From the sequence record NC_041871.1: a DNA stretch of 64,000 bases; one strand, written 5' to 3'. The notes under the pieces were generated by a model. The model was not told where the DNA came from, ran no database searches, and worked only from the letters and a program-made list of their open reading frames with translations. Below, piece by piece: positions 2,125 through 29,526 of this stretch. Origin of the DNA: Escherichia phage Murica. A program made the translations under genes and the position numbers. Every line of letters starts with the position of its first letter. Position 1 is the first letter of the stretch.

Positions 2125-2223
2125 TGTGCCTCCAGGTTAAACAATCATGATAGTTATTTTACCAGATTTTAAGTTAATACGCAATACAAACAAAAAGCCC
2201 CCGCCGAAGCGAGGGCAAAACAG

Positions 2224-5200
2224 TTACTTCAGTTTCTCTTGCAACCCAGTAACAACCTCTGTCAATTTTTTAACCTGCTCCTCAAGGGCGGTTATTTTAT
2301 CGTCCTGTTCCCTGCAAACCTGGACAAGCAAGCCTGTTACAGCTGCGTAGTCAACGTTATAGAACCTTTCTTCTGTTATCAAAGGAGTTCCATCTTGATC
2401 AGGATTTGGGATTTCCTTCCTTTTCACGAAAGACCCTACTGCCTCTGGCAATGCTTCCATGACCTCTTGAGCAATTACCCCCGCGTGAGGCATACCATTC
2501 TCTTTTAAAGTGTAGGTATAGCCCTTCATCTTACGGATAGCTTCCAGCGCGTTAGGAATAACCTCTATATTGTCCTTCAGGTCTCTATCAGAGCTCTGGC
2601 TCACAGTGGTGCACTCTACTACACCGTTGACAGCAAAATATCTTGACTTAGCCTCGTCTGACCTAGTGCCACAGTGGAATACCCAGCTAGCAGATGCAGC
2701 GTTGTCGTTTACCTGAAACTCAAGCACGTTCTTCCTGTCTGCGTTACCCCAATAGAACATTCTACCTGTATTGGTAGGTAAGTTATCGGCGTTGCTAGAA
2801 AGACTATTAGCACCGACATGAATTTCCAGTTGATTACTGGTTTCACCAAAAGTGTAATTAGGTCTTAACTGAATGCCTTTACCAGCATCGTGTCTCCATT
2901 CTTCCCAAGTAAAGACATCGCCAACGTAGTTACCAGCACGAGTATATCTGTCACCAAAATAGGTGATATATTCCTGCACACAACCTTGAGGTCTGTTAGC
3001 TGTGTTTTTGTAAACAAGCAGTGTACCAGCGTACGGAGCAGGGTAGTGGCGATCTATTACAAGTGCGTCAGCGTTTGAACCTTGGTGATAGAAACCTTCA
3101 CGGCTACCATCGTAGGCATTAAGGTCTTCTGTCCCCAGACCTTGACCACGGTGCTGAATAACTTTGTTCCACGCCCTGTGGTTACCACCCTCAATAGATC
3201 TGGTGTATAACTGATCAAGGCGACCAGCCATTTGGAAAGCATAGTTTCCAGAAAACGCCACAGACAGTCCACCAACAACCATCGAACCTTCCGGTCCGTT
3301 GACATTGCCAGCCATTATCTTGGAGGGGTTTGTATTACCAAACTGATTGTTCCAGTCAGCACCTGTCTGGCAAACATAGCCTCCAGGAGGGAAAAATGTG
3401 CCGTCTTTGTTGAAATTGTAGAACTTATGAGCTGTACCTACAACATCGCGAACGATAACTTGACCAGCTTCCGGAGTAGATCTGAACTCTGCCTGGCCTT
3501 GCAGTCTTGCACCATTACCACATTTAGAGGTAAAGGTGTTGTTGATCAGATCCTCTGTTCCTTCCGATGCAGCTTGGAACCCTGCGTTAGAGAACAGTGC
3601 TTTTCTAGTGGTCTGACTACCAGGACAAATGTAGTCAATACCGTCTGCCCAAAGCTCGACTTTAGGCATGTTCATTTTGCTCATCACTGCATAGCGTTCA
3701 GGAGTCCCCAGGTAGTGCCACATAGTTCCACCACCAGTGTAGAAACCTGATGTTCCTTTGAACTCAACCAGAGGTCTGGTGTTTGTTACATCATCACCTT
3801 TGATTGCAAGACTCAAATCTGCAGATTCCAGAGGAGCACAGAACTTGACACCATCTTGGTTACCTGTCACGTTGCCTACCTGCCAATCAGCCTCCCTGGT
3901 TGACACTTCTATTACAGTAGCGCCAGCATATACCGTAACAGGGAATGCACGTGCCTCTACATAGAATGCAACATACTCCTGCTTACCTCTGGTTGGAGAT
4001 ACACATCCGAGGATTGCTCTCTCGTTTTGGTAGAAATTAATAACCCCTTGGAAAGAATCACCTCTGTCTGTCCAGCCACCAGTTCTGTAGTGACACTGTA
4101 GTGTAGCACAGTTCATTGGGTCGCCGCCAGAAGAAGATCTGGTGACAATGGTTAAATCTGTCCCGATAGTTGCTGCAAAGTTGGGGTCAGTTCTGACGAT
4201 AATAGGATAATACTTACCGTCCTGCATAGCTGCAGTTCTAGGCAGGTTTACATATGGTCTAGCACCTGCTGCCAGAGGGATTCTGAATTGTGCTTGAGCA
4301 TCCCCTACAGTCCTGGCACTGGTACCACCACAAGCTATCGGTAGTGGTTCCCATTTGGCTTTCCGGTTGTTATAAACACCCCACTCAAGCGTTCCTTCAC
4401 CTTGCTCGTCCATACCGCCATCCCAAATGACCATCTTGGCGGCTTTCTTAGATCCCCAGAAACCTCTTTCTGCTCCTGAACTGCGGATCCATTCTCCAAG
4501 TCCCCAGTTTGTCAGCTGACCAGTAAGATCCCCAACCTGCATATATTTAGGGCAGTCTAATACGCCGTCTTCGCGGAAACCTAAATATTTATGAGTTTCA
4601 GATCCTTTTGCACCTTTGTGCAGGTGGATTGTCAGCCAAGCCTTATTGTCGTTTCTTACCTCAGAGTAGATCCTATATCCATGCTCAAGAACACCATCGG
4701 TGTTATATTTATCTCCATGGAGAATACCTGAGGCCGATTTAACATCTCCAGAGTATTGAGCTAAGTAAAGGTGCCCAAAGGCTGGCGAGTTGTTTTTACC
4801 AAGGCCAATATGAGATCTGAAGGTATCATCGTTACGAGGTCTGACCATCGGCTGCCATGCAGTCCACTGATTTGTGTTGGCCTGATAGGTTCTCAAATAC
4901 CAAACATCTACGTTAGAGAATGGATAGTATTCCTGACGACAACCTGTACCTCCGTTAGCATTGTTCTGCCAAACAATCAAGTGACCAGCACCAGAACCTG
5001 CAGGGTAACCATTTGCCTCGGTTGCATAAGCAGTCATCGGCTGGTAGTATACACCATCCTGATTACCAGTCAAGTTATTGATATTGAAATTTGACTCAAG
5101 AGCTGCACGTTGCTTATAGAAAGCCCCTAAGTTAATGCGTGCACCTGCGGCATCTCTGGCCCCCGTACCGCCTTGCTCTATAGCAAGAGGCTGCCACGAG

Positions 5201-6036
5201 GCTGTTTGTTGGTTCCACATGCCCCAACGGCCTGTTGCGTCAAGCTGCAAGTACCCTGCCGTGTTTAAATCATCTCCAGCACGGATAACTGTTCTTGTTG
5301 GGTTGTTTGCCTCCAGGCGTTTAAATTCATCACGAAGTGCTATTCTTTTTGTTGTTGCTACACCGTTGGTTACTGCGATGGTATACATGGCTCCGGATGT
5401 AGCGCCACGGAAAATACCATCAACAGTTGTAGTATCACGACGAGATACCACACCGTTCAGAAATTTTTCACCAGCTGCTACAGAAGGGTAGTTGGTGGTT
5501 CTTCCCTCTTCAATAACTGCAGGACCCACAAAGTTATCAAGGTGAATAACATCACCTACAGTGTGCACCGTACCAAAATCTACACGCTGTGCAAGTGCTT
5601 TAGCATCGTTAGCTGTCTGAACAGTAACATCCATTACATCCTGGACAGACTGCCCTTCGGCTGTCATGATCATAGATGCGCCAATGGTAGATTCCAGCTC
5701 CTCCCTTAGGGACGGGTCAGTATATACCATCCATGCAGCGTCAGTAATCCCACCATCGGAGTACGGTGAAGATAGTGCAGGAACAGTGTGTGGAAATTCG
5801 CCTTTCCAACGCAGGTAGAGATCTTCCTCTTCGAAATAGGCAAAATCCATTGGGCCGTTTAACTTACCACCTTCCTTAAAGGAGATTACATGAGAAACAG
5901 TCCCATCCACATGGACAACATCGCCAATTTTTACACGACGGGTCAGGTCTGGTTGTTGAACAACCAGGTAATCATCCTCTGTCACTGCGGTAGTGGCAGG
6001 AAGAGATTCAATTCTGACAACTTTAATATCAGCCAT
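2224..6036 (-). CDS. long tail fibre protein with C-terminal intramolecular chaperone (peptidase S74-like) domain
   Basis: 1270 aa; N-terminal motif shared with the 8671..9339 protein; C-terminus carries an SDRDLKDNIE...GYTY motif typical of autoproteolytic fibre chaperone domains, followed by a coiled coil. Confidence 0.75.
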   Translation of the reverse strand: MADIKVVRIESLPATTAVTEDDYLVVQQPDLTRRVKIGDVVHVDGTVSHVISFKEGGKLNGPMDFAYFEEEDLYLRWKGEFPHTVPALSSPYSDGGITDAAWMVYTDPSLREELESTIGASMIMTAEGQSVQDVMDVTVQTANDAKALAQRVDFGTVHTVGDVIHLDNFVGPAVIEEGRTTNYPSVAAGEKFLNGVVSRRDTTTVDGIFRGATSGAMYTIAVTNGVATTKRIALRDEFKRLEANNPTRTVIRAGDDLNTAGYLQLDATGRWGMWNQQTASWQPLAIEQGGTGARDAAGARINLGAFYKQRAALESNFNINNLTGNQDGVYYQPMTAYATEANGYPAGSGAGHLIVWQNNANGGTGCRQEYYPFSNVDVWYLRTYQANTNQWTAWQPMVRPRNDDTFRSHIGLGKNNSPAFGHLYLAQYSGDVKSASGILHGDKYNTDGVLEHGYRIYSEVRNDNKAWLTIHLHKGAKGSETHKYLGFREDGVLDCPKYMQVGDLTGQLTNWGLGEWIRSSGAERGFWGSKKAAKMVIWDGGMDEQGEGTLEWGVYNNRKAKWEPLPIACGGTSARTVGDAQAQFRIPLAAGARPYVNLPRTAAMQDGKYYPIIVRTDPNFAATIGTDLTIVTRSSSGGDPMNCATLQCHYRTGGWTDRGDSFQGVINFYQNERAILGCVSPTRGKQEYVAFYVEARAFPVTVYAGATVIEVSTREADWQVGNVTGNQDGVKFCAPLESADLSLAIKGDDVTNTRPLVEFKGTSGFYTGGGTMWHYLGTPERYAVMSKMNMPKVELWADGIDYICPGSQTTRKALFSNAGFQAASEGTEDLINNTFTSKCGNGARLQGQAEFRSTPEAGQVIVRDVVGTAHKFYNFNKDGTFFPPGGYVCQTGADWNNQFGNTNPSKIMAGNVNGPEGSMVVGGLSVAFSGNYAFQMAGRLDQLYTRSIEGGNHRAWNKVIQHRGQGLGTEDLNAYDGSREGFYHQGSNADALVIDRHYPAPYAGTLLVYKNTANRPQGCVQEYITYFGDRYTRAGNYVGDVFTWEEWRHDAGKGIQLRPNYTFGETSNQLEIHVGANSLSSNADNLPTNTGRMFYWGNADRKNVLEFQVNDNAASASWVFHCGTRSDEAKSRYFAVNGVVECTTVSQSSDRDLKDNIEVIPNALEAIRKMKGYTYTLKENGMPHAGVIAQEVMEALPEAVGSFVKRKEIPNPDQDGTPLITEERFYNVDYAAVTGLLVQVCREQDDKITALEEQVKKLTEVVTGLQEKLK

Positions 6037-8670: not shown

Positions 8671-9339
8671 TTAGATAGCTCCTGCGATAATCAGTGCCCC
8701 GTACCAAGTTAACCCGTTGTCGTAGGTTTCCAACTTGAAAATATCTGTTGCACCAGCTGTAAATGTTAGGATAGGATCTCTTCCGTAGGACCATTTAACA
8801 TTACCAGGCCAATAGACTTTGTTGCCGCCAGAGGTCTGAGTAATGCATACGGTTATAGTTCTCGCCACCCCTTCAAGACCTTCTGTTTGATTTTCAAAAG
8901 AGATTGTGGTATTTGAAGTTAGTCGAACCTTAAAGGTATCCGCAACTTCAAGATCCATATCAAGCTGACCACCGATAGATCCGTAATCAACTATTCTGCC
9001 AGAAGAAGTTGCAGCAAGCTCACCAAAAACAGACCAGGCATTTGCAGACACGCCCCCAGCACCCTCTACGGTGGAGTCTGGGAGGATTATTTTAGGATAA
9101 TCCCCGTTCCACGTGTAGTAGCGCTTAGTCTCTGGGTCATAAGCAAAGTCCTTCTTGCTCTTAAGATAACCACCCTCTGTGAAATAGACTATCTTAGTAA
9201 TACTAAGATCGTTGACAACATCGTCAATCTTAGCCTTTCTTGTCCCATCAGTCTGGTTGACAACCAAGAAGTCATCACTCAGGACTGTTTCTGCATCTTC
9301 AAGATCTGGAATTGGTATTGTAGGATAAGCTACAGCCAT
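8671..9339 (-). CDS. tail fibre-like adaptor protein (N-terminal anchor domain)
   Basis: 222 aa; its N-terminal 100 aa share a conserved pattern with the N-terminus of the 1270-aa fibre. Confidence 0.55.
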   Translation of the reverse strand: MAVAYPTIPIPDLEDAETVLSDDFLVVNQTDGTRKAKIDDVVNDLSITKIVYFTEGGYLKSKKDFAYDPETKRYYTWNGDYPKIILPDSTVEGAGGVSANAWSVFGELAATSSGRIVDYGSIGGQLDMDLEVADTFKVRLTSNTTISFENQTEGLEGVARTITVCITQTSGGNKVYWPGNVKWSYGRDPILTFTAGATDIFKLETYDNGLTWYGALIIAGAI

Positions 9340-28713: not shown

Positions 28714-28790
28714 TGGTCTCCACGGAGTGATTCGAACACTCGACCTCCTGATCCCAAATCAGGCGCTCTACCAAGCTGAGCTACGCGGAG
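28714..28790 (-). tRNA. tRNA-Pro (anticodon UGG)
   Basis: cloverleaf folded by hand: 7-bp acceptor, T-loop TTCGAAT, anticodon loop TTTGGGA, encoded CCA. Confidence 0.8.
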
Positions 28791-28801
28791 TATTTATTAT
28801 T

Positions 28802-28876
28802 TGGTGGCCCTGGGTGGAATTGAACCACCGTCTGGCGATTATGAGTCGCTTGCTTGAACCTTCCAGCTACAGGGCC
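28802..28876 (-). tRNA. tRNA-Met (anticodon CAU; could be lysidine-modified Ile)
   Basis: acceptor GGCCCTG/CAGGGCC, anticodon loop CTCATAA, T-loop TTCAATT, encoded CCA. Confidence 0.75.
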
Positions 28877-28877
28877 T

Positions 28878-28953
28878 TGGTGCTGATGGCAGGACTTGAA
28901 CCTACAACCTATTGATTACAAATCAATTGCACTACCGATTGTGCTACATCAGC
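28878..28953 (-). tRNA. tRNA-Thr (anticodon UGU)
   Basis: acceptor GCTGATG/CATCAGC, anticodon stem ATTGA/TCAAT with loop TTTGTAA, T-loop TTCAAGT, CCA. Confidence 0.8.
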
Positions 28954-28960
28954 AAAAAGG

Positions 28961-29057
28961 TGCTAGGTGATGGAATCGAACCACCTATGTATTCAACGAC
29001 TACCTCGTCTATTTTCAGGATTAAAAATCCTCGCCCTTGCCAAAGGGCTTACCTAGC
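28961..29057 (-). tRNA. atypical 97-nt tRNA-like element (anticodon unresolved, possibly UUU; very long variable region)
   Basis: perfect 7-bp acceptor pairing GCTAGGT/ACCTAGC, canonical T-arm GGTGG-TTCGATT-CCATC and D-arm, but 65 nt between; no encoded CCA. Confidence 0.45.
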
Positions 29058-29155
29058 TCAGTATGTTGACCATGTTGCTAGTCGGCGATGACGACTGTAA
29101 CATTTGATAATCCGGTTCTGCTTCCGGCTTTCGCTTAATTACAAGGTCAACAATG

Positions 29156-29246
29156 TGGCGGAGAGTAATGGAATCGAACCATCATCGAGTCATCCTCAAC
29201 GGGACGGTTTTCAAGACCGCTTGAGCACCATTGCTCCCTACCCTCC
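29156..29246 (-). tRNA. tRNA-Ser (anticodon UGA), type II
   Basis: 91 nt, acceptor GGAGGGT/ACTCTCC, anticodon loop CTTGAAA, long variable arm, T-loop TTCGATT, CCA. Confidence 0.8.
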
Positions 29247-29360
29247 TTTATAAATTATACTGATAATGACACTGATTTTCGAGCAGTTAGTGACTAGTAT
29301 AAACGACGATAAATATCAATGCCATTATCTGTATTATTTATGCATCTAAAAATATAAATT

Positions 29361-29447
29361 TGGTGGGGAGTGGTGGAGTCGAACCACCCGAGTCGCAATG
29401 ACAATAGATTTACAGTCTACACCGCTACCTCTACGGGATAACTCCCC
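29361..29447 (-). tRNA. tRNA-Tyr (anticodon GUA), type II
   Basis: 87 nt, acceptor GGGGAGT/ACTCCCC, anticodon loop CTGTAAA, long variable arm, T-loop TTCGACT, CCA. Confidence 0.8.
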
Positions 29448-29451
29448 AATT

Positions 29452-29526
29452 TGGCACCCCGTACTGGACTCGAACCAGTGTCAACGGCTTAGAAGGCCGC
29501 TGCTTTATCCACTAAGCTAACAGGGC
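29452..29526 (-). tRNA. tRNA-Arg (anticodon UCU)
   Basis: 75 nt, anticodon loop CTTCTAA, T-arm ACTGG-TTCGAGT-CCAGT, acceptor with two G-U pairs, CCA. Confidence 0.75.

Follow-up and report, generated by a model that had tools for sequence, protein, structure and literature searches.

A peptidase S74 domain at the C-terminus of a Vequintavirus lateral tail fibre and its predicted self-release

Does the C-terminal end of the long tail fibre of Escherichia phage Murica stay on the virion, or does it assist the folding of the fibre and then leave it? The question is raised by a gene at the beginning of the stretch of 64,000 nucleotides of this phage analysed here (NC_041871.1; hereafter the window). 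The last residues of its product had been taken, in a sequence-only reading, for an intramolecular chaperone of the kind carried by endosialidase-type tailspikes and L-shaped fibres. The presence of an S74 domain on this fibre is already known, as the orthologous protein gp41 of phage rV5 has been annotated in this way since 2013. Its extent, its catalytic residues, its predicted fold and the fate of the mature fibre are addressed below.

The fibre gene and its surroundings

In the list of open reading frames, the lateral ('L-shaped') tail fibre gene occupied positions 2224..6036 of the minus strand and encoded 1270 aa plus a stop codon. The protein matched the tail fiber protein family phrog_6578 of PHROGs from end to end (E=0). 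The Pfam scan revealed two domains, namely Peptidase_S74 and an N-terminal Tail_spike_N (TSP1/gp66-type) attachment domain at aa 46-103 (5728..5901, minus strand; PF18668, E=2.5e-10, 40.7 bits, cutoff 25), and no sialidase domain was detected in that scan.

With regard to its relatives, the first 8 kb of the window were 96.3% identical at the DNA level to Escherichia phage EduardKellenberger, a Vequintavirus, and over 100 further rV5-like myoviruses showed 90-95% identity; the window is assigned to Vequintavirus on these sequence comparisons. Likewise, the fibre protein is identified as the orthologue of rV5 gp41, EduardKellenberger bas59_0026 and MaxBurger bas54_0027. In rV5 and the Vequintavirus orthologues, the same syntenic gene encodes a protein whose length lies within 2 aa and which carries the same Tail_spike_N and Peptidase_S74 domains. 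The EduardKellenberger CDS bas59_0026 (3813 nt, the same length) is annotated as "lateral tail fiber protein" and is flanked by another lateral fibre gene on one side and by small tail/baseplate genes on the other. In the 2013 rV5 paper, gp41 (1272 aa) bears the name "L-shaped tail fiber protein", and a PF13884 match, an HHpred match to 3GW6 (probability 98.69) and high coiled-coil probability are given for it.

Downstream of the fibre gene in the window, three ORFs were assigned by PHROGs to distal-tail-protein, tail-protein and unknown-function families. A gp38-like gene for an adhesin or a chaperone acting in trans was considered for this position and rejected, as only a terminator and then the distal-tail-protein gene were present. 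This intrinsic-terminator-like hairpin with its T-tract (2187..2216, minus strand) begins 8 nt past the fibre stop codon and consists of the stem GCCCTCGC-TTCG-GCGGGGGC, with 8 pairs, 7 of them G-C, followed by TTTTTGTTTG. It sits in the 99-nt gap between the fibre gene and the next tail gene, and a transcript end, as marked by a strong terminator-like hairpin, would not be expected inside a late tail operon.

Two genes upstream of the fibre gene, a 222-aa rV5 gp43-like protein was encoded at 8671..9339 (minus strand; phrog_7760). Its N-terminal ~140 aa are common to the N-terminus of the fibre (5608..6021, minus strand), and both regions match phrog_7760 and tailspike N-terminal families. This similarity points to an attachment module common to both proteins, as is the case in branched tailspike assemblies.

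Elsewhere in the window, a cluster of 6-7 tRNA genes was located at 28714..29526 (minus strand). A 97-nt tRNA-like gene within it (28961..29057, minus strand) was reported by ARAGORN as 'tRNA-???' with a 4-base anticodon, and it reached only 35.5 bits as a tRNA in Rfam. The equivalent gene in the related genome MZ501061 is annotated as a 97-nt tRNA-Lys (AAA); inspected by eye, the gene shows a TTT anticodon loop and then an extra ~29 nt, which is unusual for tRNA-Lys. The tRNA-Ser(tga) predicted by ARAGORN at 29156..29246 (minus strand) scored below the Rfam tRNA gathering score and is unannotated in the corresponding gap of MZ501061.

Sequence and fold of the C-terminal domain

The domain comprises aa 1149-1270 (2227..2592, minus strand; 122 aa, 13.7 kDa), is predicted to be released after trimer folding, and ends at the stop codon of the 1270-aa protein, within the tail-fibre locus. 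As had been claimed, two motifs were found near the C-terminus, SDRDLKDNIE at aa 1149-1158 (window 2592..2563) and GYTYTLK at aa 1172-1178 (window 2523..2503). The interval originally proposed for the domain, 2224..2700, does hold it, but additionally takes in the stop codon (2224-2226) and aa 1113-1148, that is, 36 residues on the upstream side of the predicted cleavage site that are part of the mature fibre tip.

An alignment to the peptidase S74 family had been suggested as a check, and here PF13884 (Peptidase_S74, "Chaperone of endosialidase") matched aa 1149-1200 over profile positions 1-57 of 58. The score lay so far above the cutoff (E=1.9e-16; 60.6 bits, the gathering cutoff being 22) that the motif match is not attributable to chance. 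When aa 1113-1270 were compared with ~5.8 billion proteins, 74 matches were obtained, nearly all with PF13884 and mostly named "tail fiber domain-containing protein" or "peptidase S74". Conservation was assessed in an alignment of 30 of these 74 matches, with identity down to 32%.

By analogy with Thr1263/Ser1264 of T5 pb1 (PMC4690869), the predicted scissile bond is Ser1148/Ser1149 (2590..2595, minus strand), with Ser1149 (2590-2592) as the predicted nucleophile. This serine was conserved in at least 90% of the 30 aligned homologues. Lys1154 (2575..2577, minus strand), which would serve as general base in the Ser-Lys dyad, stands at the Ser position + 5 and was invariant in 30/30 of them. An S-x4-K dyad is present in SSDRDLK; the GVIAQE and PE motifs were also conserved in this alignment.

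A profile derived from the 30-homologue alignment was compared with PDB sequences and recovered the S16 gp37 construct 6f45 (E=2.9e-17) and the MyRF ICA domain 7dc3 (E=1.2e-8), with the SD...K motif in register with both. S16 gp37, the distal subunit of the long tail fibre of Salmonella phage S16, presents a separate gp38 adhesin after processing. Among the sequence relatives for which a structure has been solved, it is the best match, and the alignment takes in SSDRxxK, GYTY, GxIAQEVE and the C-terminal heptad helix, with the Ser1149 site falling on the SSDRRIKK motif of gp37; S16 has its gp38 adhesin, whereas here no gp38-like gene follows the fibre gene. MyRF (myelin regulatory factor) is a eukaryotic membrane-bound transcription factor. 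Its ICA domain differs in being internal, and its cleavage frees the transcription factor instead of maturing a fibre. Neither T5 pb1 nor K1F endoNF was found by single-sequence or profile search of PDB sequences, which yielded only S16 gp37 and MyRF; the T5 pb1 and K1F chaperones were recovered by fold comparison only.

The AlphaFold2 model used for that comparison, a monomer of aa 1113-1270 (158 residues), had a mean pLDDT of 80.7; for the helix and most of the core, the block means were ~84-95. The model displayed a small alpha/beta core, a long beta-hairpin at aa 1200-1228 (2353..2439, minus strand; model strands 88-97 and 107-116, pLDDT 70-90) and one long C-terminal alpha-helix at aa 1230-1269 (2230..2349, minus strand; model helix 118-157, block pLDDT 86-95), predicted to form the trimeric coiled coil of the chaperone. 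The coiled coil that had been expected after the motifs is supported both by this single predicted helix and by a 3-4 hydrophobic spacing, which runs uninterrupted through I1248, L1251, V1255, L1258, V1262, L1265 and L1269 in the C-terminal 33 residues. A heptad pattern can be followed from about aa 1237, with L/C/Q/I/L/V/L/V/L/L at the a/d positions, and together with the single long helix of the model the heptads at aa 1237-1269 are consistent with a trimeric coiled coil. The chaperone of T5 pb1 possesses a 'tentacle' that reaches onto the fibre tip (PMC4690869), and by analogy the hairpin at aa 1200-1228 would be its equivalent.

When the model was compared with the PDB by Foldseek, nine matches were obtained at E≤0.001, all of them chains of 3gw6 or 7dc3 and all with probability 1.00. 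Significant fold matches were found only with solved chaperone domains, namely 7dc3 (MyRF ICA domain, score 9.0), 4uw8 (T5 L-shaped fibre with its chaperone, 6.5), 3gud (GA-1 neck appendage chaperone, 6.2) and 3gw6 (K1F endosialidase chaperone, 6.1). The K1F endosialidase chaperone is the founder of the MEROPS/Pfam family S74; it shares 12-15% identity with the domain described here, and its passenger is a tailspike enzyme, whereas here it is a fibre.

The two quoted motifs are short, and this is all that could be said for a coincidental match in an otherwise unrelated C-terminus. Such a coincidence, already refuted by the Pfam E value of 1.9e-16, the profile-to-PDB matches and the restriction of the fold matches to chaperone domains, has a vanishingly small probability. 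An intramolecular chaperone of the endosialidase or L-shaped-fibre type is supported instead by the Pfam match, the conserved Ser-Lys dyad, the profile and fold matches and the C-terminal position. Two corrections to the sequence-only reading are needed. Firstly, the domain is delimited to 2227..2592; secondly, a mature fibre shorter than the ORF is upheld by the predicted cleavage at Ser1148/Ser1149, but the fragment lost would measure 122 aa and not ~130 aa, nor 150 aa.

Predicted cleavage and release of the chaperone

It is very probable that aa 1149-1270 act as a peptidase S74 C-terminal intramolecular chaperone that is released by self-cleavage at Ser1148-Ser1149 after trimer folding. For this phage, we infer trimerisation, chaperone function, cleavage and its exact bond from a mechanism for which T5 pb1 and K1F endosialidase serve as paradigms. 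In T5 pb1, Ser1264, activated by Lys1269, cuts the Thr1263-Ser1264 bond after correct folding, and an arginine of the neighbouring chain located upstream of the scissile bond (Arg1250) functions as a folding sensor (PMC4690869).

The spacing of Ser1264 and Lys1269 in the T5 pb1 chaperone (4UW8, residues 1264-1396) is the same as that of Ser1149 and Lys1154 here, and the 4uw8 match covers 120/158 modelled residues, with 13% identity in the structural alignment. The two systems differ in that T5 is a siphovirus and its pb1 releases 133 aa, whereas the phage analysed here is a myovirus with a predicted fragment of 122 aa. No homology to the bullet-shaped tip of T5 pb1 was detected in the upstream tip, and tblastn matches to T5-like 'L-shaped tail fiber' genes involved only query residues ~38-178, i.e., the chaperone, at 30-35% identity. 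Since the similarity to T5-like genes is confined to the chaperone, the fibre would work like pb1 at its C-terminus without being a pb1 homologue overall. Judged from these alignments, the name 'L-shaped tail fiber' given to rV5 gp41 reflects the shared chaperone only.

According to the proposed mechanism, the three C-terminal domains of the nascent trimer would join through the heptad helix (aa ~1237-1269) and the alpha/beta core of each, and the beta-hairpins (aa ~1200-1228) would embrace the tip upstream, a grip that would bring the trimeric distal tip (aa ~1001-1148) into register and nucleate its folding. As soon as the tip has reached its correct fold, Ser1149 would be activated by Lys1154 and attack the Ser1148-Ser1149 bond in all three chains. 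In this way the 13.7 kDa chaperone trimer would be set free, and the 1148-aa subunit (125.8 kDa) ending at Ser1148 would stay on the virion. The computed subunit mass is 139.4 kDa for the uncleaved protein (1270 aa) against 125.8 kDa for the cleaved one (1148 aa). With regard to tryptic peptides, that across the predicted site is YFAVNGVVECTTVSQSSDR, the predicted neo-C-terminal peptide is YFAVNGVVECTTVSQS (aa 1133-1148), and those within the chaperone include EIPNPDQDGTPLITEER and ITALEEQVK. Neither chaperones nor cleavage are dealt with in a 2026 phi92 structure paper.

The domain might also be a genuine S74-type chaperone that aids trimerisation, is not cleaved and remains on the virion at the end of the fibre, although we consider this quite unlikely. 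In its favour, the folding-sensor arginine of T5 and K1F, represented by Arg1250 in pb1, is without an identifiable counterpart in this fibre; none was found at the equivalent distance in the 30-homologue alignment, where R1132 and R1125 are nearby but unconserved. An intact C-terminus is also left possible by mass spectrometry of rV5 virions, in which 8 gp41 peptides were recovered at 8.1% coverage, none of them from the last 122 residues; the most C-terminal peptide, YGGTTPEGEIPTPELK, lies ~75 residues upstream of the cleavage site. However, at 8.1% coverage an absence of this kind is expected by chance in ~45% of cases, and for this reason the peptide data say nothing either way on cleavage.

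Retention of the chaperone is difficult to reconcile with a Ser-Lys dyad that is intact and under strong conservation. Furthermore, the domain is 94% identical to the chaperone of MaxBurger, whose cryo-EM shows no density for it: in the 2025 RBPseg study, the S74 domain of the MaxBurger fibre RBP_11 was without density in a map of low resolution (7-9 Å), as expected if the domain had been cut off. In T5, pb1 with the S1264A mutation is not cleaved, and in this state it is unable to compete for the receptor (PMC4690869); given that an uncleaved chaperone blocks receptor binding there, retention here would probably disable the tip. Self-cleavage and release thus remain the preferred reading.

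The link to the cryo-EM data depends on the identity of RBP_11, which is almost certainly bas54_0027 (1272 aa), a protein with 85% aa identity to the window fibre protein. This assignment is based on the fact that bas54_0027 was the only S74-bearing protein among the seven MaxBurger fibre/tail proteins scanned, a set that left out the large intimin-domain fibre bas54_0041, and on the C-terminal divergence of the EmilHeitz orthologue, which corresponds to that described for RBP_10/RBP_11.

Variation of the tip and conservation of the chaperone

Identity to the MaxBurger protein was distributed unevenly, with 97.2% at aa 1-540, 79.6% at aa 541-1000, 50.7% in the tip (aa 1001-1148) and 94.3% in the chaperone (aa 1149-1270). 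This variable distal tip of the mature fibre (2593..3036, minus strand) adjoins the predicted cleavage site and, on the basis of its variation, is likely to be the receptor-binding end. For the EduardKellenberger fibre, segment identities ranged from 79% to 99%, the tip (aa 1001-1148) being at 79%. Differences from the Vequintavirus orthologues consist of allelic variation only, concentrated in the distal tip at aa 1001-1148, and allelic variation in the three largest fibre genes was described in the BASEL paper. A variable, putatively receptor-binding tip beside a conserved folding module is the usual picture among such sequences.

The tip-plus-chaperone module was also present, at ~50-60% identity, in fibres of E. 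coli prophages, in unrelated coliphages and in Salmonella phages, and its occurrence in prophages and unrelated phages indicates cassette-like transfer. The same spread, which reaches unrelated phages with genomes of 45-112 kb, could be taken to mean that the C-terminal module is an inactive remnant, brought in with a fibre tip gained by horizontal transfer and devoid of any role in folding or processing. This is very improbable, as all family-defining residues are kept across hosts and lineages and, between Vequintaviruses, the chaperone (94%) is far more conserved than the adjoining tip (51%), a difference which indicates purifying selection on the chaperone.

Besides its predicted action as a self-releasing chaperone, which we continue to favour, the domain may have a second significance that appears unlikely but deserves some weight. 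The conserved chaperone may provide a constant 3' anchor for recombination, by which a mobile 'tip + chaperone' cassette would be exchanged between Vequintaviruses, E. coli prophages and unrelated siphoviruses, and/or the Ser1148 end created by cleavage may dock an adhesin, on which the RBPseg authors speculated for MaxBurger. If either were true, the processing step would control host range and not folding alone.

According to the RBPseg study of 2025, Vequintavirinae fibres carry S74 domains, and RBP_10 of EmilHeitz has in place of S74 a lectin-like head, which was seen. In the EmilHeitz genome (MZ501062, 5248..10016), the first ~1050 aa of bas49_0026 (1478 aa) were 87% identical to the window fibre. 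Past ~1050 aa the protein diverges and is without S74, a ~430-aa module matching phrog_1419/5939 replacing both tip and chaperone; by this comparison, the two fibres represent a natural allele swap. EmilHeitz also possesses, downstream of bas49_0026, an extra 110-aa ORF (phrog_1361, unknown function) that has no counterpart in the window and might, as a candidate only, be a trans-acting assembly factor replacing the missing chaperone.

An internal repeat was also observed in the window fibre, between 4848..5085 and 2889..3126 (minus strand; aa 318-396 and 971-1049), where NLTGNQDGVYYQ...AGHLIVWQNNANGGTGCRQEYYPF corresponds to LNAYDGSREGFYHQ...AGTLLVYKNTANRPQGCVQEYITYF. It may be a duplicated copy of the 'mobile' pseudo-domain (D42) that the RBPseg paper describes for such fibres.

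Overall, the finding matters little beyond correct annotation and opens no new biological question. In practical terms, a construct for expression of the tip must include the chaperone, which would remove itself, and in virion proteomics or SDS-PAGE a subunit of 125.8 kDa rather than 139.4 kDa is expected. For host-range engineering of these fibres, the unit to be swapped would be the tip-plus-chaperone module.
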